DNA from: Trypanosoma brucei
Lineage: Eukaryota
NCBI GenBank assembly: GCA_000002445.1
Contig: CH464491.1
Span: forward strand, 1,568,001-1,632,000
Length of the DNA: 64,000 bases
Direction of reading: 5' to 3'
Part shown: positions 974-48,512 of the stretch, in pieces
Layout: each line of letters begins with the position of its first letter
Numbering within the stretch: the first letter of the stretch is position 1
Made by a program: the position numbers and the translations under genes
Notes under the pieces: model-generated
Seen by the model: only the letters and a program-made list of their open reading frames with translations
What the model was told of the DNA's origin: nothing
The model's database searches: none

Positions 974-3847
974 ATGCAGCGCTCACCTCAATCATATGAG
1001 AGCTTTCTTGACGACGAGGAACTTGTTAAGCAGCTGATTGAGGCTACCGACGTGGATGAAGTTGTAGAGCGCATGGAAATAGAGCGTTACCATCACATTG
1101 CGCCCTTGCTACGGGAAATGGGACCGTATAATTGTGACTCAAAGAAACAACCAGGCTCTACGTTATCGAACTCTCAGCAACAGCAGTGGAATAGAGACGA
1201 ACCTTTTCACAATAATCCAGATGCGCGAACGAATGAAATGAAAAGAACACGCGATAGAGGTTTGCGTTACACCATGAATACCGCTTCCACCCCACCCCCG
1301 CCCCCACCAGAAACACTCTCCCCCATAGAGGATCCCCTTGAAAGGCCACGTGAGGAGATGAAGCCAACTAGAAGACGTTACACATCACCCGCACCCACGA
1401 AATCGCCATTACTCTCCAGCGAGAGAAAAAGGCAACCACCAACGTATGATGATCAGGACGAAAAACCTATCACCCATAGAATTCGTCGAAGACAAGCATA
1501 TAGTGCGGAAAGGCTGAGACCACCAAAGAGCAACACAAGTCGAGGGAGGCCACTCTCGCCGGCTAACCCCAGAGGCTACGCTGGACAGCAGAGGGCTCGC
1601 TCTTATGATCGGAAACCACCACCCCCATCGTCACGGCGGATTTCCCCACAGGATGAGTGTCCGAACGGGTTGGGGAAGTCACCTTCTAGTTATTCCTACT
1701 TTCGCCCGGCAGCCACCGCAAAGCCAGCATGGAGGGGTGTAAAGAATGCCCAACGTTACATGGATCTGTTTGCACCTCCTGCTGCTAACCCATCCGAAAA
1801 TCGTAGTCCATTGCGTCGGATTAAAGGTGGGTACATTGCGCCCCTTCCACCTCCTGACGGTCAATCAAGAAGAACACTATCGGCGAGGAAGCGTCCTCTT
1901 TCTCCGCCCGTTCCAGGCCGACGCCTAACACCACCAGTGGATCGTTACTTTCCTTTGAGCAGTGGTATTAGCCGGTGGGGCCGTATGGACAACGGCTATG
2001 ATTCAGAACTAACTGACGCATCAGAGGATGTACATCCCTCAGATGATGCACTTCAAGGCTACGCTGGTTACGATAATTATGTTGTTATTCCCCCACGTGT
2101 CGTAGAGAGGGAGCGGTGCGTGAGAAACCGTGTGCCAACTATGTCTCCGGCACGCTCCAGTATTCTTGTGAGCCCATGTAGATGTTTTTCTTCCCCCTGT
2201 GAGAGGAGTGGATCCTCCGATGCACAGAGGATGTGGAGATCACCACAAAGGACCCAACGAGGAACAAGATCACCCCAGGTAAGATTATCACCAGCCGTGG
2301 ATGATTCAAGAGAAAGTGAAAAGAACAAGAGCACGCGAGTGAAGAACGAAGACCTTAGTCGGAAAAATACTTGCGACGCAGGAATATCATTTCCTTCGCC
2401 GCGACAAAGGTTTAAGCCGCCCGACATGGTAACAAAGAAGGGAAATCACCGCGAAACCCAAACCTCTCCGCCACAACCCAGCCACAAGGAGGTCAAGAAT
2501 GCCGCCCTTTCACCACGCACGCTTCCAGACGAGAAGACGCCCCGCCCGGACGGCACGACAGAGCAACCGAGTACCAAATCTCCATCCCTCCCCGCTTCCA
2601 CGCGGGGGTCAAACATATCAGTTTCCTCGTCAGAAGGTGGGGGGAAGGATGAAGTTCCCATTGTGGATATTAGCAAAGAGAACAAGTCGTGTGACAACAG
2701 TCATTCACCTGACAGCGTTACTCATACATACAAAAATGTAGGAAATAAGATCTTGGATCGTAAAACTGCTGTAAGTCCGCGAGTCCACGATAAAGATAAG
2801 CGTGAGAGAAAGGGCAAGCGACAAAAGCGTATAAAACGGCGAAAAAACAATGCCCCTGACTCATCCACTGACCAGAGCAGTACGTCAGACTCAAGTTCAT
2901 CAAGTAACTTTTCCAGCGGTACACCATTTGATGAGTCACGGACAACGGAAAGAAAGCGTCGTCATCGCCGTACTCATCAGAAGTCGGGTGGCGATTCGCA
3001 CCGTCAGCAAAAGGGGAAATCAGCTCTAAGTTCCGACAACTCTCCTCTAAGAGATGATACGGCACACGCACAGGTGCCGAAAGTGTACCCCCCACTTACC
3101 AGCAGTCCTCAGAGAATTAGGAAACCTATTTGCCTACAACAGGATCCAGTTGTGCGACCGCAAGTGCAGTCAGCAAGCCGACCGCCTTTTGCGCAGACGG
3201 TACAGAGGCCTGTGTGCACTCCCGAACCGTTTATCTCATTTTCATCTCCTCCAAAGAGCAAGACGGATGTAAATGGCATTCAGCGCAGTGACAACGCAGG
3301 TCAAGGCGTTCCTTCTGTTAGCATACGAGTTGTGCCACCACCATCTCCAGGCCCACGTCGCGAACCGCCGAGCCCCACTGCCCCGAAAATGGGAGGAGTG
3401 AAGATTCCTTACATGTCGTATCTCCACACTTCGTCACCAACATCTGTAAGAGCTTCACAGTTGGGACCGGCGCAGCCGCAGCAGACCCAGTCAGCAGCAT
3501 CTGCAGCGACCCCCAGAAACGGAACTGGTGAACCCGTGTGGCGGAGCAGTGGTCATGATAGCGTTGGACGGAGTAATACGAGGGAACCTCATTTAAGGAG
3601 GAAGTGGGCTATTTGTGGGCATACACAGATACGTTCCCCACCGAGGGGTGGACGTTGTTCGTCGCAGCCTCCCCATCTACAGGCGCATGAATGGACGGCT
3701 AACGGACAACGAATGACAACAACTCGTCAAATTACTGAGCCGCCCCTCCCGATCACACCACGGCGGTCGGGCGCCACCACTCCTCAAAGACCAAACGGAT
3801 CATGCGTAAAGATAATCTCCAGCCCCTCGAGGGTAGCGCAGCACTGA
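974..3847 (+). CDS. Hypothetical Pro/Ser/Arg-rich low-complexity protein (957 aa)
   Basis: Long uninterrupted + strand ORF with an ATG at 974 and a pyrimidine-rich region with a (CA)n tract upstream. Short ordered acidic N-terminus (MQRSPQSYESFLDDEELVKQLIEATDVDEVVERMEIERY), then ~900 aa rich in P, S, R and T with many SP/RS/RR dipeptides and PPPP runs. No catalytic motif recognised. Confidence 0.5.
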   Translation: MQRSPQSYESFLDDEELVKQLIEATDVDEVVERMEIERYHHIAPLLREMGPYNCDSKKQPGSTLSNSQQQQWNRDEPFHNNPDARTNEMKRTRDRGLRYTMNTASTPPPPPPETLSPIEDPLERPREEMKPTRRRYTSPAPTKSPLLSSERKRQPPTYDDQDEKPITHRIRRRQAYSAERLRPPKSNTSRGRPLSPANPRGYAGQQRARSYDRKPPPPSSRRISPQDECPNGLGKSPSSYSYFRPAATAKPAWRGVKNAQRYMDLFAPPAANPSENRSPLRRIKGGYIAPLPPPDGQSRRTLSARKRPLSPPVPGRRLTPPVDRYFPLSSGISRWGRMDNGYDSELTDASEDVHPSDDALQGYAGYDNYVVIPPRVVERERCVRNRVPTMSPARSSILVSPCRCFSSPCERSGSSDAQRMWRSPQRTQRGTRSPQVRLSPAVDDSRESEKNKSTRVKNEDLSRKNTCDAGISFPSPRQRFKPPDMVTKKGNHRETQTSPPQPSHKEVKNAALSPRTLPDEKTPRPDGTTEQPSTKSPSLPASTRGSNISVSSSEGGGKDEVPIVDISKENKSCDNSHSPDSVTHTYKNVGNKILDRKTAVSPRVHDKDKRERKGKRQKRIKRRKNNAPDSSTDQSSTSDSSSSSNFSSGTPFDESRTTERKRRHRRTHQKSGGDSHRQQKGKSALSSDNSPLRDDTAHAQVPKVYPPLTSSPQRIRKPICLQQDPVVRPQVQSASRPPFAQTVQRPVCTPEPFISFSSPPKSKTDVNGIQRSDNAGQGVPSVSIRVVPPPSPGPRREPPSPTAPKMGGVKIPYMSYLHTSSPTSVRASQLGPAQPQQTQSAASAATPRNGTGEPVWRSSGHDSVGRSNTREPHLRRKWAICGHTQIRSPPRGGRCSSQPPHLQAHEWTANGQRMTTTRQITEPPLPITPRRSGATTPQRPNGSCVKIISSPSRVAQH

Positions 3848-4372: not shown

Positions 4373-4757
4373 AACCCTTTTCTGTCTTTTCTTTTCCGTT
4401 GTTATTAAGCGTGGGAGCACACAAGGAAACGTGGAACAACACTAAATTTAACCAATTTACGCGTTCTGGGCTGCATTACCTTACCGTCACCTTCACTTCT
4501 TTTCTATTTGTCTATGACGCATTTCTCTTGTTTGTGTGTCTTTCTTTTTCCTTCTACTTGGTCTGCTTTCATGGGGGTTGCCGTAAACCTACTGGAACCC
4601 CCTGACAACGGAAATGTTGTATTGAGGTGCTGGATCGTGCAGTGAAGGGGGGTTGGCTATTGGGTGCTAGAGTTCCCCGCACATAAGTACAATATAATTT
4701 TGTGTGCGCGCAGTTACGCACTTTTTTCGTTTGTACAGCTAAGAGAGACCGTTGACG

Positions 4758-6521
4758 ATGATGACCAGCAGTCCGAGTTCCATTGAAGTGCCCCACTCGT
4801 GGGCGGAGAAGTACAAACCAAAAACCATTGCACAGATGTGTTACCCCGTTACCGCAAATAAGTTGAAGCAATGGATGGAAGAATTTGAAGCCAATAGTTC
4901 CAAAATGAGGGGAGCACTACTCTCGGGACCACCTGGTGTTGGTAAGACGACATCTGTTTATGTTGTGGCTTCCGAGCTCGGGCGTGTTGTTGTTGAATAC
5001 AACGCCAGCGACTTCCGCAGCAGAAAATCACTGCGGGAGAACGTTAGCACCGTAGTTAATAACCGCACTTTCAGCAACACTTCCTCGTCCTACGCTAATA
5101 TTGTGCTGCTGATGGACGAAGTGGATGGGTGCGACATTGGCGGCGTCGGAGAAGTTATTCAAATGATCAAGAATACCAACGTGCCAATCATCTGCACGTG
5201 CAACGACCGGTGGCATCCAAAATTGCGCTCACTGCTGAACCACGTGGAAGACATCCGCGCTGGTCGACCCCCGTGTAACATAGTTGCCAACTACCTTTGT
5301 GATAAGGTACTGGCTCGCGAAGGCATCTCTCTTTCTAAACAGCTTCTGCAGGACATCATACAACGATCGGGAAGCGACATCCGCAGCATGCTCAACAATC
5401 TGCAAATGTGGTGCATCAACCAAACATCACTTCAGCAGAAGAAACTTGCGGAGTGCGCACTGCAGTCAGCAAAAGATGGTGATGTTGGCCTATTTGAAGC
5501 CGCCGAGGTATTTCTTCTGCAGGGGTCGTCGCGTGGTAGGCCCCGTTCCATTGAAGAGCTCCAGTCCACGTTCTACAACTCGGACCTTGTGGACATGTTC
5601 GTGCAGGAAAACTACCTTCACTTCAAACCTGAGGACCGTGATTGGATGGATGCAGTTGCCGAGGCAGCGTCTTCAATTTCACTCTCGGATCTAGCGCAAC
5701 GTATTATGTTCTTTGAGAACAACTGGTCCGTATCCCGGTCCCACGTACTTCTCTCCAGTATTATACCGTGTGCCCTAACTCGTGGTCATTACGAAACTTT
5801 TGTAACAGGGCAGCAGGCCATATTTGATCGACAACGTCCTGTGAAGTTTCCTTCATGGCTTGGTCAAAATTCAGCTGCTGGTAAAAACAAAAGGCTGCTT
5901 CGGTGCTTGACATTTCAGGCGATGGGTCACTCGAAGGGTATTAGCGGTACACAAGAGGATGTTCTGCTTGATTACATACCACGTGCCTGGGAGAGCAGAC
6001 TTACCGACCCATTAGCACAACGGGGGAAGGATGCCATTCCGGAAGTAATTGCTTTCATGGATCAGTACCACATCATGCGTGATGACTGGGAATTTATCCA
6101 GTCTGTTGCACACTTTAAGAAAATGCAGTCGGCGTCTCCAAACCCTGCTGCAGGAGATATTCCAGGAGGTATAAAAGCAGCCTTCACGCGAGAGTTCAAC
6201 AAGACACATCGTTTGGAAAGCTTTGCGAAGGGGGCGCTGCAACGGGTTGCCACCGATGGAATAGGGTTTGGAGAGGGGGAAGAAGACAACGAGGAAGAAG
6301 GAAGTGTTGCGGGAGCCTCACGCCCCACTGCGAAGAAAGCTTCCGCGAAAACTGCCGCGAAGCCGAAGAAGGCGGCGAAAAAGGAAGGTAACGAGAATGC
6401 AAAACCGAAGAAAGCGGCGGCCAAGACGGCGAAACCTGCGGGTAGGCGGGGGAGGAAAGCCACTCTTGTCGACTCTGATTCGGAACCGGAGTTTGAGAGC
6501 TACAGTTCCGATGACTATTAG
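4758..6521 (+). CDS. RFC1: Replication factor C large subunit (RFC1-like AAA+ clamp loader), lacking an N-terminal BRCT region
   Basis: Track ORF starts at a TTG (4752); first ATG is at 4758. RFC box II-like WAEKYKPKT, Walker A LLSGPPGVGKTT, Walker B LLMDEVDG, and the RFC1-diagnostic block PIICTCNDRWHPKLRSL...DIRSMLNNLQMW (compare human RFC1 PIICMCNDRNHPKIRSL...DIRQVLHNLSMW). C-terminal KA-rich basic tail (AKKASAKTAAKPKKAAKKEG...KPKKAAAKTAKPAGRRGRKA) and acidic end DSDSEPEFESYSSDDY. Confidence 0.85.
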   Translation: MMTSSPSSIEVPHSWAEKYKPKTIAQMCYPVTANKLKQWMEEFEANSSKMRGALLSGPPGVGKTTSVYVVASELGRVVVEYNASDFRSRKSLRENVSTVVNNRTFSNTSSSYANIVLLMDEVDGCDIGGVGEVIQMIKNTNVPIICTCNDRWHPKLRSLLNHVEDIRAGRPPCNIVANYLCDKVLAREGISLSKQLLQDIIQRSGSDIRSMLNNLQMWCINQTSLQQKKLAECALQSAKDGDVGLFEAAEVFLLQGSSRGRPRSIEELQSTFYNSDLVDMFVQENYLHFKPEDRDWMDAVAEAASSISLSDLAQRIMFFENNWSVSRSHVLLSSIIPCALTRGHYETFVTGQQAIFDRQRPVKFPSWLGQNSAAGKNKRLLRCLTFQAMGHSKGISGTQEDVLLDYIPRAWESRLTDPLAQRGKDAIPEVIAFMDQYHIMRDDWEFIQSVAHFKKMQSASPNPAAGDIPGGIKAAFTREFNKTHRLESFAKGALQRVATDGIGFGEGEEDNEEEGSVAGASRPTAKKASAKTAAKPKKAAKKEGNENAKPKKAAAKTAKPAGRRGRKATLVDSDSEPEFESYSSDDY

Positions 6522-8551: not shown

Positions 8552-8822
8552 ATATCGCTTTATTTTGTTGTTGCGGCGTAATCTAATTGCCCTTTGTGTA
8601 CACAACTGGAAGAAAATGGAACAGTGTATCGCCAAACTTACTCTTTCCTCATTATTTTATTTACATCTATTTCTGCCCAAGTGTGCGGGTACTTCATTTT
8701 CCATCAGAGGGTTGATGCCCCACCAACTGATTTTCCCCTTTATGATTCTGCTTTGATAACTGTACAAGGAGGAGGACGAAATTCAGACACGAAACAAGTG
8801 GTCTCAGCTTCATCGGTTGCTA

Positions 8823-9938
8823 ATGAACAAATCCGCAAAAAAGAAGGGTCTCTCCATGGAAGAAAAGGTGTCGCGTATTGAAACTTGGTTTGTTAACAAT
8901 CCGTCGCCTTACACGTTGAAAGATTTAATTCAAATTCTACCCAAGGCGACGGGCGTGATCCCACAGTCCGTGGAAGAGTGCATGGAAATCCTTGTCTCGG
9001 AAAATCGTGTGCGGCAGAAGAAAGTGGGTGTTCATGTTCTTTTTTGGCGTTTTCCCCAAACTGCTACCCAACGGTTGGCCGGCTCTATGGGAGAGAAAAC
9101 AACAACCACAGAATTAGCCAAATACCTTAGTATGTCAGAAGATGAGCTTCGGACGGAACTTCAAACTTTGAAGAAGACAGAGAAAGATATTCGTCAGCGG
9201 ATAAAAGAGACTCAGGCATCCATTGGGGATGACAACGCTGTTCAAAAGGATGCAGAGCAAATACGAAGTCTTCAGGGTGAAGTCAAGATACTGGAAGAGC
9301 AACTCAATCAACTTGCCCTGTTGGATCCAGCATTCGTTGAAAAACTGAAGGCCGCAACAGTGGTAGCGTGGGAATCTGCCAACCGCTGGACAGACAACAT
9401 GTACTTACTTGAGCAGCATATCTCACGGAAGATGGGGATGAGTGCACGGGAGCTGCGTGCTCAGCTGCAGCTTCCTCTAGAGGTGGAATACATTGAGTAT
9501 GATGAGCTTCTGCCGTCAGCAACGAGTGGGGGTAAATCAGCATGTACATCTTCAGGAAATTCTTGTGCGTCACCTCTAATCTGCACCGTCGATGCCACTC
9601 ACGGGGGAGGCAACAGTCAAGAAGTACCGGCAGCATTCCACATTGAGGAAGGCCACACCCAAAATATCAATGAGGAAGCGGGGGAAGCATTAACTGAAGG
9701 TGGATGTGATGTGAAACCTCATGAAGACGTTGAGAATGAAACCTCTAACACCTTAAGGAAGGAGAGGGATGGAAAGAAGCGTGGCAGGGGGAGACCTCCA
9801 CTGGAGAATGCTAAGAAAGATGACAATATGGTTAATGCTCCCTCAGTTAAAAAGAAAAAGAATGAAAAGGACAGACCACCTGCTGCGAGTAATACTGATG
9901 CACTCACGCCGGCCAGACAACGGCGTTGCCGAAGGTAA
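8823..9938 (+). CDS. MND1: Meiotic nuclear division protein 1 (Mnd1) homolog with a ~140 aa C-terminal extension containing an AT-hook-like motif
   Basis: Track start 8817 is TTG; first ATG is at 8823 (MNKSAKKKGLSMEEK). N-terminus KKKGLSMEEK...YTLKDL...GV..QSVEE..E.LV matches the Mnd1 winged-helix N-terminus (human MSKKKGLSAEEKRTRMMEIF..FQLKDLEKIAPKEKGIT). Central coiled coil. Conserved block AWESANRWTDNMYLL matches Mnd1 AKEAANRWTDNIFAI. The extension carries KKRGRGRPP (nt 9774-9800) and a KKKK basic patch. Confidence 0.75.
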   Translation: MNKSAKKKGLSMEEKVSRIETWFVNNPSPYTLKDLIQILPKATGVIPQSVEECMEILVSENRVRQKKVGVHVLFWRFPQTATQRLAGSMGEKTTTTELAKYLSMSEDELRTELQTLKKTEKDIRQRIKETQASIGDDNAVQKDAEQIRSLQGEVKILEEQLNQLALLDPAFVEKLKAATVVAWESANRWTDNMYLLEQHISRKMGMSARELRAQLQLPLEVEYIEYDELLPSATSGGKSACTSSGNSCASPLICTVDATHGGGNSQEVPAAFHIEEGHTQNINEEAGEALTEGGCDVKPHEDVENETSNTLRKERDGKKRGRGRPPLENAKKDDNMVNAPSVKKKKNEKDRPPAASNTDALTPARQRRCRR

Positions 9939-10293
9939 CCAAACTCGTTAGTCCAAGAAATAGCGTGCTGCTTTGAATCCCTTTTCTAACAGAACAAGCA
10001 CAGAATACCTTTCCTTGAACGGCAGACAGACTTAAACAGTCATTGCCGCAATTTTTAAATATATCATATTCGGCTTGCGTTCACAGACTTGTGTTACACA
10101 TTTTATGTTGCTATTATTATTATTTTTTTTTGGAGGGGAAGGGGAGCCCAACTCTTGAAGAAGGGTCGTTCGCATGCAACAAGAAATGTTATCAAAGAGC
10201 ATATTGTTACTTTTCAACGTTTTATTGTAACGAGTAAATACCTCTCCAAATCCTCCACGTTTCTTTTATTTGAGGAGAGCGAGCGTGTCGAAT

Positions 10294-10339
<46 letters not shown>
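10294..10339. repeat. Compound microsatellite (TC)11(TA)12
   Basis: tctctctctctctctctctctc directly abutting tatatatatatatatatatatata, in the MND1-LC1 intergenic region. Confidence 0.95.
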
Positions 10340-10676
10340 CCTTCTCACTCCTTCCGAACCCGCTGTGTGTTGAAAATATTGTTTAATACTTATTTTCCTT
10401 TAAGCGGACGGTTGGAAGTGTCAGAGCTTTTGGTAAGTTGTTAGAAGATATAGGCAAAGAAAATGATTCCCGGTCCGTATTCTTAACGAACTGATCCTTT
10501 TATTTTTTCTACACGCATTCTGCCAAACTCAAGCACGCAATGCGCCATCGAGGGAAAGACTTGCATATGGGTGTCTTGAAGCACAGTTAGTGCGTGTGGG
10601 TGTGGTTTTGATTCCATTGTTGACCGCATGCCCATTGATTTTGTTGCCCTTTTTTAAATTTTGTAACATTGTTGCT

Positions 10677-10696
10677 TGTGTGTGTGTGTGTGTGTG
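10677..10696. repeat. (TG)10 microsatellite
   Basis: tgtgtgtgtgtgtgtgtgtg followed by T/A-rich low-complexity sequence. Confidence 0.9.
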
Positions 10697-11137
10697 TTTT
10701 ATTTTCAACTTTATTCATTTATTTAATAGAGCTTTATTTATCTATTTTTTTTTTTCGTTTGTGGAGTTAATGATATAGGTTCTTTACTTACCTCACCACC
10801 ACTCTTCTAATTTAGGCTAAGAGTAAGTGAGAAGCTTTAATGAGAAAATAAATAAATAAATGAGTCTGTAACTCACCTTTTGGTGTGGTCCTTTTGGGGG
10901 ATAATTTTTTTTTCTTAACCCTTGTGTCGACTTTTTTTAAAAAACTTTTCTGTTTCCTACTTTTTCATGATCTGTCTTTTTAACAACATCCGTTCATTAC
11001 ATGGTAATGTTCAAAAACACACACGCACAAAAAAAAAAGAAGAGTGAGAAAGGTAGCGAAGTCGCTATTCAATTGACTGGTCAGGTGGTGGAAGAGAGTG
11101 GCATTTCATCCTTTCACGACTATAGAGGTTTATAGTA

Positions 11138-12640: not shown

Positions 12641-12659
12641 GAAAGTGAGTGCGCACCAA

Positions 12660-15600
12660 ATGGATGGCGATGAATTATTCGTTTTAACACCCAGTGACGA
12701 TGGGGACTTAAGCCAAGCAGGAGACGAAGGGAAGGGTGGCCCCGAAGGCAATGAAAACAGAGAGGGCTCATCAACGGCAGCATCCGCTTCCATCACCGAA
12801 TTGGAGTTTCTGTTTTTACGTAAACCTTTAAATGCTCCGCTGGTCAAAGGGTCTATAACCTACGGTAAATTAAACGAAGGTAACGCGCAGAACCAACAAA
12901 GTCCACAAGTTCAGGTTGATGTGAAGAAGGAGGAATCATCGTCGTCAAACGGTGGCGTTTCACTAGGTGTGGGTAGCGATGTACAACGCGTAACAATTGA
13001 GAGTAAAACAGCAAGTACCCTTTTGTCCACGAATGTACAGGCAGAGGCGGCAGTTAATATCAGAATGCTACGTGCGATGACGTCTGCTGATGTACGTAGC
13101 GTTCTGAAACCCTTTTTCCACAAAAACCAAACCTCGATGGAATATTTCGAGAAAGTAACCACTCAGTTGAAGGAAAAAGTGATTGCTGGTAAGATTTTAG
13201 ACGAAAAGGAAAAGGACATGTTAGAACGTTGGCGACTGTTGGTGAATATATCAAACTGGGGTGACGGAAGTCGGAAAGCAGATGATGTCCTCTTTCCACC
13301 CGAACTTGTTCAACCAGCTGAAGCACTTTTGGAACCGGGGTGGAGTAGTAATAAAACGGCAGCAGACGAAACAACAGCTTGTCCACCGCCAACAAACGGT
13401 TGCAAGATATATTTGCGCGCCCATCAACTGAAGGGAATTCGTTTCATGTGGAGTATTCTGGCGGAGGGACCCGTTGGTCAGGTTCCTGCTGTTGGTTGCA
13501 TTCTTGCACACACAATGGGACTTGGGAAGACTTGTCAGGTAATCATTTTCCTTCACCTTTTCCTGGATATGTTGCGGAAAATGGGTGGAAGTTGGTACAA
13601 ATCAAAAAAAAAGCAGAGGAGGATATTAATCGTTGTACCAAAGTCGACACGGGCCGTGTGGATTGAAGAGTTTAACATGTGGTCAAAATTCTTTCCTCGC
13701 GATAAACGTATTGTTCCGTTGTCAGTGGAAGACTGCACAAGAGTAGGACAACGTGTGAGGGCGTTTAATGAATGGAAGACGAATGGTGGTGTTTTACTGG
13801 CGGGATATGAAATGCTGCTAAATGTCGCCAAGTGCATTGGAACCACTAGTCAGGAGGTATGGAACCCTTCAAGCTATGTTGATCTTCTTGTATGTGACGA
13901 AGCTCATCGTCTCAAATCTGAAAATTTACAAATTGCCAACGTGTTACGAAGCTTCAATCCACTTCGCCGGCTCCTGATCACAGGAACACCGCTGCAGAAT
14001 CACCTAAAGGAGTACTGGGCTATGGTGGACATGGCCGTTTGGAAATACTTTAACAAGCAGCGCTTCTCACAGTTCTTTGTCAGTCCAATAGAAGCCGCTG
14101 CAGACCAAAAGGCGAGCTTGGATGAGGTGACAGTTGCACGAATGAAGACTTTTGCACTTTCACGAGAGCTAAGGAATTTTGTTCAATGCGCTGATGGAAC
14201 AGCACTGAGGAAGGAACTGCCACCTTTGCACGAGTATGTTGTCGTTCTTCCGCTTTCTCAGAGTCAAGCAAAACTGTACAACGAATTTCTGCAGTTAGCA
14301 AGGCATAGTGGTGCAAGACATCGTGCCTTCCTGGAGATAGCAATAGCTATTAATAAAATTTGCGCGCATCCACAACTTCTCTATGCAACCGGATTTGCCA
14401 CAGGCGAAGAAGGACAAAGCGAAGCCTTGGGGCTACTGTCGGATGGTGAAGGGGATGATAATTTTATGACTGAATGCCCCGAGGCTGGGCAGGAAAATGT
14501 GGCCCTTCGAAGCAAACGGCGGGGGTTGTGCCAACCCCCTCCAGGGTATGTTCCCATGCCTGAAGAGGGAACCAAACTGTACGTTTCTATTTTAATAATT
14601 AAAGCGGCCGTGTTGCGGGGTGAGCGGTGCCTGTTTTTTAGTATGTCTACTAAATTGTTAGATATCTTTGAGGGCATTATAGCCGAGATGAACGATCGGT
14701 GGTTGAAGGATGGCTCTCTCAGCCGCCCCATTGTTTTCTGCAGATTGGATGGCCGTAAGACAGAGTGGGAACGGTCTGAGGCGCTACGGTCCTTTGCCTC
14801 GTCTACTGGTGCTGACCTTTTCCTTTTGAGTACTAAAGCGGGTGGTATCGGGTTGACCATTACATCCGCAACCCGTGTCATAATAGCGGATGGTAGTTTT
14901 AACCCTGCTGACGACACACAAGCTATTGGACGTGCGTATCGATATGGGCAGACTCAACCGGTTTACGCATACCGCCTTGTTTGCTATCAAACCTTTGAAC
15001 ACCGTATGTTTCAGCAGAAGTTGGCAAAGGAGTGGCTCTTCCGCACGGTTGTGGAAGAAGCCTCGTTGAAACGTGATTCGTTGTCAGGGCTCCGAATACA
15101 ACCCATTTATGAACTTCTAAACAGCAAACAAAATGTGAGAAGTGGGCCCCAACAATTGACCGACGAGCAGCGCCAATCAACAACCTCCATCACCTCTGAG
15201 GATGCCGTACTCGCCGATGTGTCGAAACACATTCTGTACGCTGAGCGACATTCCATGTTTCTACAACGGGATGAAACTACCAACCTCACTGCTGAAGAGC
15301 GATTTTTCCGGGAGGAGTATGAAAAGAACCGCCTGTTTGACACGGATAACATGCCGGATCCGGTGGAGGGAGCTCAATTGCGGGAGGTGTGGAAACAAAA
15401 CTTTCATAAAAGTCAGTTGGAGCCCCAGGCCAAAACGCTGGGTGCTTTGCTAGATAACATAATTAAGTCACGTGCCGAAGCAGACCCACAACTGGCTGAC
15501 CTCCTGAGTAAGATGGGCATTGTAAGGAAAGGAATTGATAATCTTGTGGTTGATGCAAGTGATGAACCAAACAATTCAGAAGTTACGGAGCGGCCGCAAG

Positions 15601-15866
15601 CAAACCAAAGGAATAGTCGCCGCGACGATGAAAATGAGTCGAAGGGTTACTTGCCTGAACCCAAAGCCCCACGCCTGGAGTCGGTTCCCCGCGTCCGGCG
15701 AGGTTTGGGGGGAAACACTTCCGCACAAAGTGTGCTTTCCCATTCTAATGCTGATAGCAGTTGTGTTGGCCCCTTCGAACCGCTTGTCGATCCAAAATTT
15801 TACGGAGAACTGCGACATGGGGGGAGCCCCTATCGACCCATATACGTTGATGACGATACTGTCTAG
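12660..15866 (+). CDS. SNF2-family DNA-dependent ATPase, ATRX/ARIP4(RAD54L2)-like subfamily
   Basis: Track start 12645 is GTG; first ATG is at 12660 (MDGDELFVL). Helicase motif I GCILAHTMGLGKTCQVIIFL (ATRX/ARIP4: GCILAH.MGLGKTLQV.SF), motif II LVCDEAHRLKSEN, motif III LLITGTPLQNHLKEYWAMVDM, motif V/VI LLSTKAGGIGLTITSATRVIIADGSFNPADDTQAIGRAYRYGQ. About 250 aa low-complexity N-terminus and ~290 aa C-terminal tail. No dioxygenase (JBP-type) domain. Confidence 0.85.
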   Translation: MDGDELFVLTPSDDGDLSQAGDEGKGGPEGNENREGSSTAASASITELEFLFLRKPLNAPLVKGSITYGKLNEGNAQNQQSPQVQVDVKKEESSSSNGGVSLGVGSDVQRVTIESKTASTLLSTNVQAEAAVNIRMLRAMTSADVRSVLKPFFHKNQTSMEYFEKVTTQLKEKVIAGKILDEKEKDMLERWRLLVNISNWGDGSRKADDVLFPPELVQPAEALLEPGWSSNKTAADETTACPPPTNGCKIYLRAHQLKGIRFMWSILAEGPVGQVPAVGCILAHTMGLGKTCQVIIFLHLFLDMLRKMGGSWYKSKKKQRRILIVVPKSTRAVWIEEFNMWSKFFPRDKRIVPLSVEDCTRVGQRVRAFNEWKTNGGVLLAGYEMLLNVAKCIGTTSQEVWNPSSYVDLLVCDEAHRLKSENLQIANVLRSFNPLRRLLITGTPLQNHLKEYWAMVDMAVWKYFNKQRFSQFFVSPIEAAADQKASLDEVTVARMKTFALSRELRNFVQCADGTALRKELPPLHEYVVVLPLSQSQAKLYNEFLQLARHSGARHRAFLEIAIAINKICAHPQLLYATGFATGEEGQSEALGLLSDGEGDDNFMTECPEAGQENVALRSKRRGLCQPPPGYVPMPEEGTKLYVSILIIKAAVLRGERCLFFSMSTKLLDIFEGIIAEMNDRWLKDGSLSRPIVFCRLDGRKTEWERSEALRSFASSTGADLFLLSTKAGGIGLTITSATRVIIADGSFNPADDTQAIGRAYRYGQTQPVYAYRLVCYQTFEHRMFQQKLAKEWLFRTVVEEASLKRDSLSGLRIQPIYELLNSKQNVRSGPQQLTDEQRQSTTSITSEDAVLADVSKHILYAERHSMFLQRDETTNLTAEERFFREEYEKNRLFDTDNMPDPVEGAQLREVWKQNFHKSQLEPQAKTLGALLDNIIKSRAEADPQLADLLSKMGIVRKGIDNLVVDASDEPNNSEVTERPQANQRNSRRDDENESKGYLPEPKAPRLESVPRVRRGLGGNTSAQSVLSHSNADSSCVGPFEPLVDPKFYGELRHGGSPYRPIYVDDDTV

Positions 15867-28507: not shown

Positions 28508-31500
28508 ATGCTTGACCGCCGGCGGCCACGTGATGAAAACATCACCCCGAGTGACAACCCCCCATTTAAAGGCCTGTTGAGTATGAAGGCGCTGACCACG
28601 TCAATAGAAACTGGCGGATCCGCCGGTGATGACACGGAAGGTCGGATGACTGGAAATGAAAACGCAGAGTTTGCTTACGGTAGCGGTTTTTATCTTCAGG
28701 AGGAGTACCTTGAGCGTCTCCGGCGTCGTGGGCATAGACTCAATAACACGGAAACTGATAATTTTGGTGACGACGCAGACAACAACGATAGGAGTGAATT
28801 AAGTGGGAGCCGCAGAGATAGGACACAGCGAGGGGAGGCATCTGACGTTGAGCTTATTATGGACCATAATCTTCAACCACGTTTTTTCCGCCTTGGGAAT
28901 GACTTTCCGGCCGTTTCTGCGTCGTCCGTACTCGATGGGGAGGGTACAAATGAATCGATGTTGCCACTGAATGTTATCACTGCTCACGACACCGCAGGTG
29001 ATATTATCATTCCTGTTGTAAGTTCAAGTTGCAGAATGGCGCAACAAGCTCAAAAGGGAAGCACTTCGTTAGCTGCTTTGAAGCGTCAGCAGGAGTCTGA
29101 GCGCGCTACGCGGGAGGCGATGGACACCAGTAAATCACAGCTGACGCGATTGCTTCAAAAGGGGGAAATTGGCCAAGAGATTGAGGTTGTAGACCAGTCG
29201 CATAAGCCAAAGGGACTGGACAGTTGGTTGCTGGACTCCACGAGGGATACCGAAGAAGATCTGGAAGGCGAAGAAGAGATGCTGCGACGCAAAGTGCGAA
29301 GGGAGCGCATACGGCTGGAAAATTCGTTGAACCCGTCTTCTGCTAACGGAGCGATGACTGCGGAAACAGCAGCAAAAGAGGAGGAGCGGGATGTTCGGGA
29401 GAGGAATTATTTGGATGTGCAGCGGAGGCGACAGGAAAAGTTGGACCGCGTGAGAGACGCTAAGGAGAAGTGGGAACGTTCAACAAATGATGCTGAGGTA
29501 AGCGGAGCACGGCGTATTGCAATTCTTACAATACAACGTCAGCTTCCAATCTATCGATGCAAAGAGGAGCTGCTCAGATGCATCGGAGAGAATCCAGTTT
29601 CCATCGTAGTTGGCGAGACCGGAAGCGGGAAGACCACGCAACTCGTACAATACCTGTACCAACGTGGCTATACTCGTGGTGGAGGAATTATTGGATGTAC
29701 GCAACCGCGGAGACTTGCCGCCATAGGCGTTGCCCGTCGTGTAGCGGAGGAGATGGGTTGTGCGTTAGGTACTCGAGTGGGTTATGCTATCCACCTCGAT
29801 GACAACACTTCTGAGGACACTGAAGTGAAGTTTATGACGGACGGTGTGCTTCTACGAGAGATTGTTCGTGATCCGAACGTGGATAAATATAGTGTGATAG
29901 TACTTGACGAGGCTCATGAGCGGTCTGTTAACACGGACGTTTTGCTTGGTGTATTACAAGCGGCAGTCCGCCGTCGATCAGACCTGAAACTGGTAGTAAC
30001 ATCTGCCACGATGGATATCTTGAAATTTTCAAAGTTCTTTGGTAATGCGCCGTGTTATGAGATACCTGGCCAATCGTACGAGGTGGATGTGCAGTACGCG
30101 ACGGCCCCTATTGAAGATTACGTGTTGGAAGCGGTTTTCCGCGTGTGCCAATTACACATCCAAATGCCACTGGAAGGAAAACATGACATATTAGTTTTTA
30201 TGACGGGTCGTGATGACGTGCTTGGAGTGTGTTCACTTATCCTTCGTCGTCTTCAAGAAATGGATCCAAAGTGGCTCGATTCTCTTCTGTTACTACCGTG
30301 TTTGTCGGAGGCAGTTGGCGCAACGGCAACCGGTGTTCTTGATCCTACACCCAGCGGAATGAGAAAGTGTGTTGTTGCAACCAATGTTGCAGAGACATCC
30401 TTGACCATTGATGGTATACGCTATGTTGTGGATTGTGGGTTCATGAAAACAAATGTATTCCGACCCAAACTCGGGATGAATACACTGCAGCGGTATCCCA
30501 TCTCTCAGGCGCAAGCAAATCAACGAAAAGGTCGAGCGGGCCGAACGGCAGAAGGCATCTGCTATCGTTTATACACTGAAAGTCAGTTCAAACACGAAAT
30601 GCTTCTTAGTAGCGTTCCCGAAATTCAGCGGAGCAGTATTGATAGCGTGGTGCTTCTTCTTAAAAGTATTGGTGTGTCACGCTTGATTGATTTTGATTTC
30701 ATGGACCCACCCCCTGCCGCGAATATAAGACGCAGCATGTGGCAACTTTGGGTACTCGGGCTTCTGGATGATAACGGGAATATAACGGCAGACGGGAAGT
30801 GCGCTTTAGAATTTCCACTTGCGCCGACACTTGCTAAAGTACTTATAGAAAGTACGGTGCGCGAATGCTCGGTGGAGGCGGTGCGTGTGGTGTCGGTGAT
30901 TTCAGCTGATCCCAAAGGACTTTTTGAGCTTCCAAAGGGTAGCGAAGAGGCCGCACGGCAGCACCACAGTCGGTTTCATGTGAATGACTCAGATCACCTT
31001 GCATTACTTAACGTCCTCACACATTTCATAGAAAACGGAAAGTCACGCCAGTGGGCAAGGGACCACTTTCTGCATCTTCCCACACTACTCCGTGCATGCG
31101 AAGTTCAACAACAATTACTCGAACGTTTGCGTCAGTTGAAACGCCCTATTGTTTCATGCGGAGCGAAGGGACTTGATCGAGTTCGTCAGTGCGTGGCCTC
31201 AGGTTTTTGTCTCCTTTCAGCACGACGGTCGAGTACAAACTGGAGTGCCTACCGTCCTATGCTTAACGCGGGGGTGACGTGTTACGTGCATCCGTCCTCT
31301 GCAGTGTATGCACGCGCGGAGATGCCACTTTATGTGGTTTACCACGACCTCCTTCTCACAACTCGAGAGTATCTTGTGATTGTAACTGCTGTGGAACCCG
31401 AGTGGTTGGTTGAGGCTTCTCGGGGTGTATTCATTGTGAAAGGATCACCGAAGGGCCTAGTGACCTCAGCGGCCACTCCTTCGGGTACCGCAGTGGTAGA

Positions 31501-31648
31501 GAACAGGAGTGTAACAGGTCGCGTGGTATCGGAAACCTTGCAGAATCCATCACCCATTCCACAAGGATTATCAGTCCCACGTCCTCCGGTTCATCAACCG
31601 AAATCAAAGGGGGGAATGGTTCTTACAAGACGGCGAAACAACATCTGA
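28508..31648 (+). CDS. DEAH-box ATP-dependent RNA helicase (spliceosomal Prp2/Prp16/Prp22-class)
   Basis: ATG at 28508, preceded by a ~95 nt polypyrimidine tract and AG at 28457. Motif I VVGETGSGKTTQLVQYL, Ia TQPRRLAAIGVARRVAEEMG, II VLDEAHERS, III SAT, IV FMTGRDDV, V TNVAETSLTIDGIRYVVDCG, VI QRKGRAGRTAEGICYRLYTE. C-terminal HA2/OB-type region. About 340 aa charged N-terminal extension (EEDLEGEEEMLRRKVRRERIRLE). Confidence 0.9.
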   Translation: MLDRRRPRDENITPSDNPPFKGLLSMKALTTSIETGGSAGDDTEGRMTGNENAEFAYGSGFYLQEEYLERLRRRGHRLNNTETDNFGDDADNNDRSELSGSRRDRTQRGEASDVELIMDHNLQPRFFRLGNDFPAVSASSVLDGEGTNESMLPLNVITAHDTAGDIIIPVVSSSCRMAQQAQKGSTSLAALKRQQESERATREAMDTSKSQLTRLLQKGEIGQEIEVVDQSHKPKGLDSWLLDSTRDTEEDLEGEEEMLRRKVRRERIRLENSLNPSSANGAMTAETAAKEEERDVRERNYLDVQRRRQEKLDRVRDAKEKWERSTNDAEVSGARRIAILTIQRQLPIYRCKEELLRCIGENPVSIVVGETGSGKTTQLVQYLYQRGYTRGGGIIGCTQPRRLAAIGVARRVAEEMGCALGTRVGYAIHLDDNTSEDTEVKFMTDGVLLREIVRDPNVDKYSVIVLDEAHERSVNTDVLLGVLQAAVRRRSDLKLVVTSATMDILKFSKFFGNAPCYEIPGQSYEVDVQYATAPIEDYVLEAVFRVCQLHIQMPLEGKHDILVFMTGRDDVLGVCSLILRRLQEMDPKWLDSLLLLPCLSEAVGATATGVLDPTPSGMRKCVVATNVAETSLTIDGIRYVVDCGFMKTNVFRPKLGMNTLQRYPISQAQANQRKGRAGRTAEGICYRLYTESQFKHEMLLSSVPEIQRSSIDSVVLLLKSIGVSRLIDFDFMDPPPAANIRRSMWQLWVLGLLDDNGNITADGKCALEFPLAPTLAKVLIESTVRECSVEAVRVVSVISADPKGLFELPKGSEEAARQHHSRFHVNDSDHLALLNVLTHFIENGKSRQWARDHFLHLPTLLRACEVQQQLLERLRQLKRPIVSCGAKGLDRVRQCVASGFCLLSARRSSTNWSAYRPMLNAGVTCYVHPSSAVYARAEMPLYVVYHDLLLTTREYLVIVTAVEPEWLVEASRGVFIVKGSPKGLVTSAATPSGTAVVENRSVTGRVVSETLQNPSPIPQGLSVPRPPVHQPKSKGGMVLTRRRNNI

Positions 31649-32215
31649 GTATGAAACTTATAATAGCGTAGGTGTTTTGAAGCGACATTGTAGGTTTTTT
31701 ACAGGTTCTCACCTTCCTTCACCTCCTCAAAAGCTACGTCGTTAGTTTTGTATATCGATTTCATGCTTATTGGCGTTTTGGTGCAGCATGGGGAGGGAGC
31801 ACAAAAGGAAGCGGCTCACATAGTCGAGACGATCGGTGTTGTTTCTTCATATTTATTATCATTATCTCAGACAGTAAATCTACGTGTAAATCTGTATGTG
31901 GATATATTTGCCTAGCTCTTTTGTTACTACCCCTGTCTGCTTTTTTAAAATTTTTTGACGTGGTCTTTGCGGTAGGTAGGGGGGGGATCTGACTTTGGTA
32001 GCGAGGGCACTCGGACATATTCTCTTTCGTCGTGTTTGGTGACACGGTCGTGGAAGAGTTAACGTATCACCCCACAACCCACAGTCCCCACATAACATAA
32101 GTTTACCGCTTAATTTTTTAGCGGAAACCACTAGAAGTTTTTTCCATTATATTTCGTTAAGGTTGGTGAGTTTTTGCACGTTTCCTTTCATTCGTATTTT
32201 CCCGAGAAGTGTTCC

Positions 32216-35200
32216 ATGCGTTTTTTTAGCGGGTGGTTTTCACCACGTAACGTGAGCCTCAAGCAAATAGCGGACTATCCTGTTTACATATGGCAGATTC
32301 CATGTGGTAAGACATCTTTAGATAAAAATGGAAAACTTGTTGTGAGCGGTACATCGACAAAGGACATAAAAAACACAGGTGGGTACCTTGACAGTACACA
32401 CAAGGAGTGTTGCATGGTTTTCAACTTCACACCGTTGTTGAAGGAACTTGAGGCTGCTTTTAAACACGGAGAAATACTAGACTACTCAAAGCAGACCATT
32501 GAGGATTTCACGTTATTGATTGAGCTGTGTTCCACGATCGCAAAGTGGGCGCTCGCCGACCGCGGGAGGGCGGGCTACTGCGCCGTCCTTGTTTTTTTCG
32601 AGGAAAGTGACGCAGTTCACATTCCTAGCTATGCAGCTATGATTGCTACGTGCTTTTACATTTTTGCAGGTGGGCAGTCCTATTGGGGGAAATATACGCT
32701 AGATTATATGGAGAAGCAACTGGGTATTCCGCGTAGCAGGTATCACTTTCAATCACAAGAACACTATGCAAATTACTTCCAGTTGCTTCTAGACGTACCA
32801 GTGGTACCTAGCAACAAGCGGCGTAGGCTCGTCCGTGCTTCCTTGTATAACGCGGAAGCGATTAAAGATGCGAAACTGAGTCTCCTTGTGCAGTGTGAGG
32901 GTGAAGAATTTCTCATAGACGATGCGAATGCCTGGGAGGTTGTGGATGATTCAGTCATTCATTTTGACGTGCCGTATCCGGTATGTATCTTTGGGGATTT
33001 TGCTGTAGTGCTGTTACGAAATGGCAAGCTGTTGATGGAGCAAATGAAGAAAGAGAACGTTATTGCGCGTTACGCATTTAGTACTATATTTGTCCACGAA
33101 GATAATCACCAAATTCACGTTCGAAGCATGGATTACGCTGAGAAAAACAACCTCACGGGTGATTTTTACATTACTCTACACTTTGTAGACGGGGAAACAA
33201 GGAGCACGGATTCGGCTTATGCTGACCAACTTAGGAAGCGCATTGATCAGTCGCCCAGACAAAAGGCGTTTTTATTAAATCCAGAGTCGTTCGGAGCACA
33301 AAATGGTTATGCCACCTCTTCCAGTCACCGCCATGATGATGATCTTATGGGTGGAGTATATTATCGAGCTGATGGAACTCAAAGAGGGGGACACAAACAC
33401 AGCGGAAGAATGCGGTCATCTTCTGCAGCGGTTAGGGAGCCTGCAGTTCTCATTTTAGAGCAGGAGGAGGAGAGGCTTTATCAGGATGACGAGGAGTTGG
33501 CTTCATTTGCTGGTTCCCTCTACGATGAGGATGATAAATGCGAGCAAAAAACAGCATCTCACTCATCTCCTCGGGACCCAGAGAGTTCACCGCTCCCTCC
33601 GTCTGCAACATTACCGCCACCGCCTCCGCCAGCGGCTGAGAGGTTACCAGCTCCCCCGCCACCCCCTGTAAAGCTACCGCCACCACCACCACCACCGGGC
33701 GGGAAGTTGCCGCCACCGCCGCCACCACCACCGGGCGGGAAGTTGCCGCCACCGCCTCCCCCGCCTGGAAAAGCGCCACCACCACCACCAGGCGGAAAAC
33801 TTCCCCCACCTCCACCACCAGGAGGTAAAGGGGCGCCCCCTCCGCCACCGCCACCTCCTGGTAAGCTGGGTCCTGGTGGAGGTCCTCCGCCACCGCCGCC
33901 ACCCCCACCACGTGGGTTAGGGTCACTAGGGGTGTCGGCATTGGGTGGACCAAAGGCCCCAGTGCCCAAACCTGCGTATGTTGGCCCAAAACTCAAGACG
34001 TTCTTTTGGAAGAAGCTCCCCAGGGCAATGGGTCTGTGGAGTCATGCTGATACCGCGGCTGTGGAGAAAGTTATCGATGAAAATTTTCTGTTAGGGATGT
34101 TTGAAGTTCGGAAGAAGTCCTCAACTACTATGGCAAAGAATAGCGAGGCGAAAGCTCCAAAGGGTAACAGTCTTCGAATGAGTACTGCTTTGACAGATCA
34201 GAAGCGACAAAACATTGCCATTTCACTAAAGAAGCTGAAGTTGAGTGTAGGCGACTTATGCCGGGCACTAATAGAATGCAACGACGAGGTGTTGCCATGT
34301 GATGTTTTGGAGTCTGTATATGCAGCTTTTCCCACAACGGAGGAAGTGGCTTCTCTTCGAGCCGAGCATACAGCCGGAAATGTCGAATGGACAGATGTCG
34401 AAAGATACATGCACGAACTTTTTAGCACCGTAGTGGACGTACGTGACCGCATTCCCCTATGGGTAGCAACGCAAACGAGTGTAGAGTTGGTTTCATTTAC
34501 GGAGGAACGACTCGAACTTATAGGGAGAGCAGTGTTGGCCGTCACAAAGAGGAACTCTATGCTAGCTGCGCTTCTCCACGTTATTCTCTCGATCGGAAAC
34601 TTTATGAACCGTGGGAGTGCCCATGCAAACGCCCCGGGATTCCGTTTGGAGAGTTTAAACCAGATGAACTTCGTGAAAGCGGTAGATGGAAAGACAACTA
34701 TGCTGGAGGTGGTGATTGTCTCGGTTCTTGACCGTGACCCTGGATTGCTTAAATTCATGGATGAGACAGAGTGTATCGAGGATATCTGTGGTACAACCAT
34801 ACAAGATGTAGGGCAAAGTGTTTCTCAACTGAACTTCACACTGCAGAAAATGCGGCGTGCGGTTGAGGCGGCGAACCAGTTACATCTGCCCGGAAAAATA
34901 GATGCGAAGCTCCCCCCTGGGGTAGTAGACGCACTCCCCAAAGTTCTGCAAGGATACTTGGAGAAGTACCTGGCGCCAGTCTCCCAGTTAGCCATACGTC
35001 ATCAGCGGCTTAAGGAAGATATCGCGGAGATGCTGGAAAGTTTCGGTGAGGACCCAACTATGGACGAGACGGTATTCTGGAACTACTTTTTGCAACTGCG
35101 GATGGAGGTGGGGAACATCCTACAGCGCGTTGAGAAGGAGGAGGTTACCAAGCAATCGCTACTGCGATCCGTGGGCGCGGACGGCGAGGGTATCGGTAGC

Positions 35201-48506: not shown

Positions 48507-48512
48507 TTGTGT

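Follow-up and report, generated by a model that had tools for sequence, protein, structure and literature searches.

Mnd1 is the partner of HOP2, and it stimulates the strand invasion carried out by DMC1 or RAD51 in meiosis. In the crystal structure of Hop2-Mnd1 from Giardia lamblia (4Y66), Mnd1 consists of an N-terminal winged helix, a three-segment coiled coil, and a third leucine zipper with capping helices (LZ3wCH) that carries the ANRWTDN block. Human and yeast Mnd1 are about 205 to 220 aa long. In Trypanosoma brucei, a YFP::MND1 fusion was reportedly nuclear in the original paper on it (Peacock et al. 2011, PNAS). The fusion (Tb11.02.3380) is a marker of meiosis that is expressed in meiotic prophase cells of the tsetse salivary glands (PMC3928991; PMC8113336). 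HOP2 has been reported for both T. brucei and Leishmania, and MND1 null mutants of Leishmania tropica still formed hybrids (PMC10630298). The presence of MND1 in T. brucei is thus already published and is not new. The T. brucei protein has the same succession of domains as these Mnd1 proteins but differs from them in carrying 140 extra residues, predicted to be disordered, past the last capping helix, and it is this extension that we describe here.

We analyzed a 64,000-nucleotide stretch of T. brucei contig CH464491.1 (here called the window). An open reading frame (ORF) on its forward strand begins with ATG at position 8823, ends with a TAA stop at 9936-9938, and encodes a protein identical to XP_828642.1 / Q385K1 of T. 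b. brucei TREU927 and SCU66344.1 of T. equiperdum and 99% identical to MND1 of T. b. gambiense. By these matches the gene is the already known T. brucei meiosis gene MND1 (Tb11.02.3380). The ORF tool also listed a TTG start at 8817, which we dismissed as mechanical because the orthologs begin with MNK or MSK at the ATG. One trypanosomatid ortholog shares the gene order of the window, in which an RFC1-like gene and a 410-aa ORF precede Mnd1. No TBPIP/Hop2 domain was found in the other 19 long ORFs of the window. The gene and its conserved core have the following features.

8823..9938, + strand: MND1 coding sequence, 371 aa plus the TAA stop (exact match to the TREU927 protein)
8877..9056, + strand: Mnd1 winged-helix/HTH DNA-binding domain, aa 19-78 (PF03962, E=1.9e-18; pLDDT 93-98)
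9063..9317, + strand: helical coiled-coil region, aa ~81-165 (AF2 helices; collinear with 4y66_A)
9336..9494, + strand: LZ3wCH, aa 172-224, including ANRWTDN (PF18517)

Judged by profile and structure matches, residues 1 to 231 are a complete, conventional Mnd1. The Pfam family PF03962 matched aa 19-78 over its entire length (profile positions 1-60 of 60) with 66.9 bits against a cut-off of 23.5, and PF18517 (LZ3wCH) was recognized with 47.6 bits against a cut-off of 26.1 (E=1.7e-12). Within LZ3wCH, the ANRWTDN block occupies aa 186-192 (nt 9378-9398); R188 and W189 were invariant in a 21-sequence alignment (A1), and W189 was at least 90% conserved in a 46-sequence alignment (A2). A phmmer comparison aligned residues 7-225 with positions 3-203 of Giardia Mnd1 (4y66_A, E=4e-12), covering the whole 203-aa chain. 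The best Foldseek match of the predicted structure was also to the Giardia protein (4y66_C, E=6e-8); its TM-scores are low (0.21/0.37), owing to a different bend in the long coiled coil and to the disorder of the tail. The model places helices at 81-88, 95-102, 106-134, and 137-165, with a loop at aa ~88-105 that varies among trypanosomatids; its pLDDT is mostly about 90 or higher in the core and falls to ~73-75 at aa 81-100 and 161-170. Among 180 proteins (the best 150 matches of an exhaustive search plus earlier matches), the median homolog length was 209 aa, and alignments ended near query residue 225. The EYIEYDELL segment lies at aa 222-230 (nt 9486-9512). An earlier, sequence-only reading of this locus had called an intact Mnd1 homolog, had taken 200 to 230 aa as the canonical length, had put the end of the Mnd1 architecture near residue 230, and had counted an extension of ~140 aa beyond it; all four statements agree with these results, including those of the PF03962 search that it had proposed.

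Beyond the core, the frame continues into a tail with the following features.

9516..9935, + strand: trypanosomatid-specific disordered C-terminal tail, aa 232-371 (pLDDT, distribution, dN/dS)
9516..9752, + strand: acidic/neutral spacer, aa 232-310 (net charge of -8 in the first half of the tail)
9570-9578, + strand: S-P-L island, conserved within Trypanosoma (tail alignment)
9627-9635, + strand: P-A-A island, conserved within Trypanosoma (tail alignment)
9774..9800, + strand: KKRGRGRPP AT-hook-like motif, aa 318-326, on a genus-wide K-R-x-R island (alignment, regular expression)
9849..9869, + strand: KKKKNEK basic patch, aa 343-349, whose four-lysine run is specific to T. brucei (tail alignment)
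9915..9935, + strand: RQRRCRR terminal polybasic cluster, aa 365-371 (the most widely conserved tail feature across trypanosomatids)

The tail is real, in frame, and under purifying selection. It is predicted to be disordered, with pLDDT of 40-55 and no secondary structure in the AF2 model. Every trypanosomatid ortholog sampled carries a tail, of 91-410 aa; these comprise nine Trypanosoma species together with the near-identical T. b. gambiense and T. equiperdum, two Phytomonas, Leishmania martiniquensis, and about 15 further orthologs. Mnd1 of bodonids and other eukaryotes ends at ~205-245 aa, and neither Bodo saltans (226 aa) nor Trypanoplasma borreli (208 aa) has a tail. Among ~144 homologs with a locatable core end, long C-terminal extensions were essentially confined to the trypanosomatid clade, and the tail-bearing sequences formed a single clade in a neighbor-joining tree of the cores. 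The exceptions outside trypanosomatids (P0071, P0090, P0092, and P0118) lack a basic end and resemble fusions or run-ons. For two species pairs, dN/dS in the tail was 0.54 (95% CI, 0.32-0.89) and 0.49 (0.27-0.81), both significantly below 1, and in the core it was 0.10 and 0.22; the estimates are limited to these closer pairs because comparisons of T. brucei with T. cruzi or T. theileri are saturated in dS. The sequence-only reading had named a frameshift with read-through as one way in which its account could fail. We found nothing in favor of an artifact, be it a frameshift in sequencing, an overlooked stop, or an overextended annotation, and such an origin of the extension is virtually excluded, given that the identical protein is found in the independent TREU927 and T. 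equiperdum assemblies, that tails of the same architecture occur in all of the trypanosomatid orthologs, and that the frame runs on uninterrupted past the point where the Giardia crystal chain ends.

Across trypanosomatids, the conserved design of the tail is an acidic/neutral spacer, a K-R-x-R island in the genus Trypanosoma, and a polybasic C-terminus in nearly all species. In T. brucei, the first half of the tail has a net charge of -8 and the second half a net charge of +10, which bears out the acidic linker previously described; the KKKKNEK basic patch likewise lies where it had been placed. The RQRRCRR cluster at the C-terminus was absent from that description. We computed tail statistics on 28 non-redundant tail-bearing orthologs, in which net charge rose from about -0.06 to +0.38 across tail deciles. 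Lysine and arginine made up 46% of the last 12 residues, versus 12% of the rest of the tail (Wilcoxon p=7e-9), and 5% at the C-termini of tailless Mnd1 proteins. Terminal sequences of the orthologs include RKKRHKK, RRGRKKK, KKRTARKRAR, RKKRRRR, KKRKRRY, and KKRRKY; clusters were weak in T. vivax, T. rangeli, and Phytomonas Hart1, and the annotated C-terminus of T. rangeli probably runs on. Eight of the nine Trypanosoma species keep the K-R-x-R island.

This pattern bears on whether the tail could simply be a neutral, lineage-specific appendage whose basic end is a compositional accident. Disordered lineage-specific appendages are common in trypanosomatid proteins, the length of this one varies widely, and the T. 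brucei tail is only 24-26% identical to that of T. cruzi or T. theileri, compared with 58-60% for the core. Nonetheless, we disfavor this reading and consider it very unlikely: an open frame of ~100 codons or more has been kept in every sampled trypanosomatid lineage, dN/dS is below 1 in two independent pairs, the terminal enrichment in lysine and arginine recurs across the 28 sequences, and species that differ at ~50% of the surrounding tail residues have the same, or almost the same, KRxR and terminal islands.

The K-R-x-R island of T. brucei is embedded in KKRGRGRPP, whose RGRP had been called a textbook AT-hook core. AT-hooks are defined by a GRP core, ideally R-G-R-P, with K or R on both sides, often a proximal proline, and a disordered context (PMC11354804), and AT-hook 1 of HMGA1, KRGRGRPRK, binds AT-rich DNA on its own with a Kd of ~1.5-3 uM (PMC11526092). 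With its GRP core, basic and proline neighbors, and disordered surroundings, the T. brucei motif conforms to the AT-hook definition by sequence. It resembles the HMGA1 hook in its identical KRGRGRP stretch (7 of 9 residues match), its GRP core, its basic N-terminal neighbors, its proximal proline, and its disordered setting (no secondary structure, and pLDDT <50 for residues 314-321 and 324-326). It differs in being a single copy, in lacking a profile match, in its restriction to the T. brucei group, and in its C-terminal flank, P-L-E-N rather than R-K. The RGRP core (aa 322-325, nt 9786-9797), its location, the K-K-R-G on its N-terminal side, and the disorder stand. The C-terminal side reads P-L-E-N-A-K-K, with the next basic residues 6 to 7 positions away, and an hmmscan of a 28-aa segment and of the 140-aa tail gave no Pfam AT-hook at E<=10, which is weak evidence for so short a motif. 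RGRP appeared in 0.5% of tail shuffles, a rarity tempered by the conserved KRGR island on which it is built, as few extra residues are needed. In the 20 long ORFs of the window it occurred 3 times, against 0.26 expected from composition.

Conservation of RGRP among orthologs had been set as the test of the motif, and here the expectation failed. Among the 28 non-redundant tail-bearing orthologs, those of the T. brucei group alone had RGRP at the aligned position. The equivalent residues are KRGRGRee in T. vivax, KRGR(D/G)(D/G) in T. cruzi, T. conorhini, and T. rangeli, KRTRDD in T. grayi, and KRQRDN in T. theileri and T. melophagium; the T. congolense counterpart, GKRVKKGRAK, is shifted, and RGRP is also missing at this position in the Phytomonas and Leishmania orthologs. 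The purpose for which the tail is conserved therefore cannot be an AT-hook, and the motif is best read as having been elaborated late and locally, from the KRGR island of the T. brucei group.

Alternatively, KKRGRGRPP might be a working AT-hook that gives Hop2-Mnd1 an extra minor-groove, AT-preferring module to assist its winged-helix domains. The likeness to a hook that binds DNA alone and the disordered setting fit this idea, as does the observation that single AT-hooks are typically auxiliary to another DNA-binding domain (PMC3064810; PMC11354804). AT-hooks are also known in T. brucei nuclear proteins: a profile method reported one in NLP (Tb927.10.5450) (PMC3064810), and KKT2 apparently belongs here too. 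NLP is comparable in that it, too, is a T. brucei nuclear protein associated with DNA and has a single GRP-centered motif; it differs in being an unrelated protein, and the MND1 motif was recognized only by eye and by regular expression. Further, a second trypanosomatid ortholog (P0063) has independently acquired RKRGRPSRR at its C-terminus, a position separate from that of the T. brucei motif. The distribution among orthologs, the non-basic PLEN flank, the missing Pfam match, the short mutational step by which G-R-P can be gained from a conserved KRGR, and the merely micromolar affinity of a lone hook all count against a working hook, which we regard as unlikely.

The explanation that we favor, and hold with about as much confidence as doubt, is that the basic clusters of the tail act as a nuclear-import signal and/or an electrostatic DNA tether, with the AT-hook a late, lineage-specific elaboration. 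Mnd1 would have gained a disordered C-terminal tail at the base of the trypanosomatids. The basic clusters would be classical importin-alpha-type nuclear localization signals (NLSs) that carry Mnd1 into the nucleus together with Hop2, and they may have a second role in tethering the protein to DNA non-specifically, by charge. Drift or extension of the K-R-G-R island in the T. brucei group would later have produced KRGRGRPP, a stretch that can be read as an AT-hook; it could add weak minor-groove affinity, but the tail is not conserved for it. AT-hooks can serve as NLSs as well, as has been shown for the second hook of HMGA2 (PMC1874589).

The data show the identity of the gene, its architecture, the predicted disorder, the phylogenetic distribution, the purifying selection, and the charge pattern; nuclear import and DNA tethering are functions that we infer. 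The T. brucei clusters KKRGR (318-322), KKKK (343-346), and RQRRCRR (365-371) resemble classical monopartite NLSs (K-K/R-x-K/R) and lie in an exposed, disordered C-terminus, with analogous clusters in the orthologs; the difference from established signals is that an import role in MND1 is putative and that simple pattern matching is unspecific. We rejected PSORT-style patterns (pat4, pat7, and bipartite) as a discriminator: they matched 21 of 28 tails and also 66 of 109 tailless Mnd1 proteins (61%), and patterns so frequent without a tail do not discriminate. The tailless Mnd1 proteins of other eukaryotes enter the nucleus, which makes the need for a new NLS less than obvious, and a spacer of ~80-350 aa exceeds what an NLS requires.

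A different role for the basic end would be to compensate for its partner. The basic C-terminus of Hop2 has roles of its own in other eukaryotes, and the polybasic end of the tail might chiefly be a non-specific element that binds single- or double-stranded DNA, or contacts the recombinase, in its place. In the mouse HOP2 sequence used here, of which residues 1-84 were confirmed against 2MH2, the basic cluster is KEWRKRKRM (WRKRKR), and Giardia Hop2 has WATRRAKCR at the aligned position in its PDB chain. The tail leaves straight from LZ3wCH, at which end the complex is said to contact DMC1 (PMC10630298). InterPro recognized LZ3wCH in MND1 of T. brucei, whereas HOP2 of T. brucei and both proteins of Leishmania gave no such match (PMC10630298), which suggests divergence of the Hop2 C-terminus. 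The strongly conserved charge polarity of the tail is also in keeping with compensation, which we nevertheless consider quite unlikely. A combined scenario, in which the DNA-binding, recombinase-contacting, or import role of the basic Hop2 C-terminus moved to the Mnd1 tail and a genuine AT-hook in the T. brucei group biases meiotic strand invasion toward AT-rich DNA, would be a long shot.

Molecular handles on trypanosome meiosis are few, and MND1 is among them. If the tail governs how Hop2-Mnd1 enters the nucleus or engages DNA, as the import and tethering proposal would have it, the meiotic recombination machinery of these parasites would have a feature peculiar to their lineage; the AT-hook would at best be a peculiarity of the T. 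brucei group. The biological leverage is limited, as L. tropica MND1 nulls still hybridize. With such a role, the tail would also matter in practice for tagging: C-terminal tags would fall on its conserved basic end, whereas the published tags are N-terminal.

Two smaller observations concern the window and the tail. We considered whether a 957-aa ORF at 974-3847 might encode NLP, a protein of the same length (PMC3064810), and rejected it on the basis of its different chromosome ID, its lack of a glutamate-rich region, and the position of its RGRP at aa 190 rather than at 214-226 as in NLP. Within the tail, the small conserved S-P-x-R and D-T-P-A-A islands hint at further functions.

The MND1 product matches T. 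brucei brucei TREU927 XP_828642.1 (UniProt Q385K1) at every residue, which places the window on T. brucei chromosome 11. The T. equiperdum protein is likewise identical, and that of T. b. gambiense DAL972 shares 99% identity. The gene (MND1, old ID Tb11.02.3380) and its use as a meiosis marker are already known: in the salivary glands of tsetse, the protein, YFP-tagged at its N terminus, marks cells in meiotic prophase (PMC3928991; PMC8113336). The + strand carries all credible long ORFs of the window, as one trypanosome polycistronic unit would predict. Pfam assignments, among which Hop2 was not found in the window, gave the following genes.

974-3847, +, 957-aa S/P/R-rich low-complexity ORF without a Pfam match
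4752-6521, +, RFC1-like clamp-loader subunit
8823-9938, +, MND1, a single unbroken ORF of 371 codons from ATG (8823) to TAA (9936-9938)
12645-15866, +, SNF2-family ATPase
28508-31648, +, DEAH-box helicase with OB fold
32174-35230, +, FH2 formin
48507-52466, +, single-subunit (phage-type or mitochondrial) RNA polymerase
59492-60433, +, Bax-inhibitor-1 family protein
61507-62238, +, YL1 nuclear protein

The first ORF equals the AT-hook protein NLP in length (957 aa) but is clearly a different protein. About 70 to 90 nt upstream of the MND1 ATG, a pyrimidine-rich stretch, ttttcccctttatgattctgctttg (8731-8755), is followed by AG dinucleotides, a sequence consistent with a trans-splicing acceptor. 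Synteny differs downstream: a nucleoside-transporter gene (PF01733) is found just after MND1 in T. melophagium, T. theileri, T. cruzi, and T. conorhini, whereas in T. brucei nothing but a gap of 1.2 kb (9939-11137) separates MND1 from an LRR gene. The intergenic DNA downstream of MND1 contains the microsatellites (TC)11(TA)12 at 10294-10339 and (GT)10 at 10678-10697.

Pfam, phmmer, and AlphaFold2 with Foldseek all indicated that residues 1-231 form a complete Mnd1. The PF03962 profile bears out the identification made in the sequence-only reading, which had also placed four of the motifs below correctly; the third basic cluster, at the protein's end, was absent from it.

aa 19-78, +, Mnd1 HTH domain (PF03962, E=1.9e-18)
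aa 172-224, +, LZ3wCH domain (PF18517, E=1.7e-12)
aa 186-192, +, ANRWTDN
aa 222-230, +, EYIEYDELL
aa 318-326 (nt 9774-9800), +, AT-hook-like motif KKRGRGRPP
aa 343-349, +, basic patch KKKKNEK
aa 365-371, +, third basic cluster RQRRCRR

In phmmer, residues 7-225 paired with positions 3-203 of Giardia Mnd1, a chain of 203 residues in the Hop2-Mnd1 crystal structure 4Y66 (E=4e-12), and Giardia Mnd1 (4y66_C) was also the top PDB match of the AlphaFold2 model (Foldseek, E=6e-8). The model, built from a 46-sequence alignment, has a pLDDT of ~90 or more for most of residues 10-230, dropping to ~73-75 at residues 81-100 and 161-170. For residues 232-371, pLDDT is 40-55 and secondary structure is absent; the tail is therefore predicted to be disordered.

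An exhaustive phmmer search, run over 1.84 billion representative proteins, returned 608 matches at E<=1e-3, and we kept 180 proteins (the best 150 of the 608 plus earlier ones). Their median length is 209 aa, and their alignments stop near query residue 225. Among these 180, essentially only trypanosomatid proteins extend at least 60 residues past the core: nine Trypanosoma species (339-388 aa), two Phytomonas (448 and 469 aa), Leishmania martiniquensis (421 aa), and ~15 further assemblies (349-788 aa). Mnd1 of Bodo saltans (226 aa), Trypanoplasma borreli (208 aa), and other bodonid-like organisms ends at the core. In a neighbor-joining tree of core regions all tail-bearing sequences form one clade; in the simplest history the tail was gained once, at the root of Trypanosomatidae or close to it. 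The trypanosomatid homologue P0063 lies in the same gene order as in the window (RFC1-like gene, ~410-aa ORF, Mnd1), confirming orthology. Recurrence of the tail in orthologues excludes a frameshift or read-through, and the C-terminal extension proposed earlier is real. Our literature search found no paper that describes a tail shared across trypanosomatids or the basic end of that tail, so we regard it as a lineage-specific variation on a known protein rather than a new kind of system. Its functional stakes are tempered by Leishmania tropica MND1 null mutants, which remained able to form hybrids in vitro (PMC10630298).

Local alignment of the nine Trypanosoma tails revealed four small islands.

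Island 1, S-P-(L/Q/P)-(R), ~20 residues into the tail
Island 2, D-T-P-A-A
Island 3, K-R-(G/Q/T)-R-(D/G)-(D/G)
Island 4, terminal cluster of the R-R-x-K-K-K type

The T. brucei KKRGRGRPP is an extended island 3, which reads KRGRGRee in T. vivax, KRGRGDG in T. conorhini and T. rangeli, KRGRDDG in T. cruzi, KRTRDD in T. grayi, and KRQRDN in T. theileri and T. melophagium; in T. congolense the island is lost, with GKRVKKGRAK close by. The common design of 28 non-redundant trypanosomatid tails is charge polarity: the first half averages about -0.05 to -0.08 net charge per residue, the last decile +0.38. Of the last 12 residues, 46% are K/R, versus 12% in the remainder (Wilcoxon p=7e-9) and 5% at the C termini of 109 tailless Mnd1 proteins. 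Three Logan-assembly proteins of 699-788 aa (P0043, P0072, and P0075), which form one trypanosomatid subclade with tails of 358-410 aa, still finish in RKRKR-type clusters.

Coding DNA of four species (Nei-Gojobori with bootstrap) gave dN/dS values of 0.10 for the core and 0.54 for the tail (95% CI 0.32-0.89) in T. melophagium/T. theileri, and 0.22 and 0.49 (95% CI 0.27-0.81) in T. cruzi/T. conorhini. In these two pairs the tail evolves ~2-5x faster than the core and is not neutral, as is typical of disordered regions with a few short functional motifs.

The AT-hook reported earlier is present by sequence but not conserved. Among all 180 proteins, RGRP occurs only in T. brucei-group sequences and in P0063, where it lies away from the T. 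brucei position, at the extreme C terminus (...STRKRGRPSRR; locus L001 6001-7077, Logan SRR29272302), with basic flanks on both sides within the terminal cluster. This different position, and the clustering of P0063 with the Leishmania-side clade, indicate that RGRP arose twice. The T. brucei KRGRGRP reproduces exactly the opening seven residues of HMGA1 AT-hook 1 (KRGRGRPRK; PMC11526092), but P-L-E-N replaces the R-K on its C side, making it textbook on one side only. It fits a broad description of the motif, in which basic residues and proline neighbor a GRP core within a 10-15-residue disordered peptide (PMC11354804); the Pfam scan gave no AT-hook match. RGRP appears in 0.5% of tail shuffles, and KRGR to KRGRGRP is a short step given a pre-existing KRGR. 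A lone HMGA1 hook has merely micromolar affinity for AT-rich DNA (PMC11526092). The motif could contribute to DNA binding by T. brucei MND1; it cannot be the reason for the tail's existence. The window's long ORFs, 14,869 aa in total, contain RGRP three times versus 0.26 expected from composition, the other two cases being SRGRPLSP (1541-1552, ORF 974-3847) and SSRGRPRS (5532-5543, RFC1-like ORF); the tetrapeptide may be enriched in nuclear proteins of T. brucei in general.

The conserved tail elements are exposed K-K/R-x-K/R-type clusters ending a flexible spacer, a form shared with the classical importin-alpha nuclear localization signal (NLS). In mouse HOP2 (sequence verified over residues 1-84), a WRKRKR cluster occupies the position of WATRRAKCR in Giardia Hop2. 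The tail might alternatively make up for a divergent Hop2 C terminus; for T. brucei, InterPro reports LZ3wCH in MND1 and not in HOP2 (PMC10630298). Because of the NLS-like form, and because AT-hooks can serve as NLSs, as described for the second hook of HMGA2 (PMC1874589), we favor nuclear import: the tail would primarily bring Mnd1, and Hop2 with it, into the nucleus. A second, compatible role would be a nonspecific electrostatic tether to DNA, and the T. brucei AT-hook would be a late elaboration. This reading is weakened by simple NLS patterns, which do not discriminate, and by tailless Mnd1 elsewhere, which does without such a signal. Import also leaves the S-P-x-R and D-T-P-A-A islands and the length of the spacer without explanation.

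The S-P island is a possible phosphoregulation site. It is S250-P251-L252 in T. brucei (9570-9578) and the full CDK-type consensus S-P-x-R in T. grayi, T. cruzi, T. conorhini, and T. rangeli. T. brucei also has T-P-A-R shortly ahead of the terminal basic cluster.
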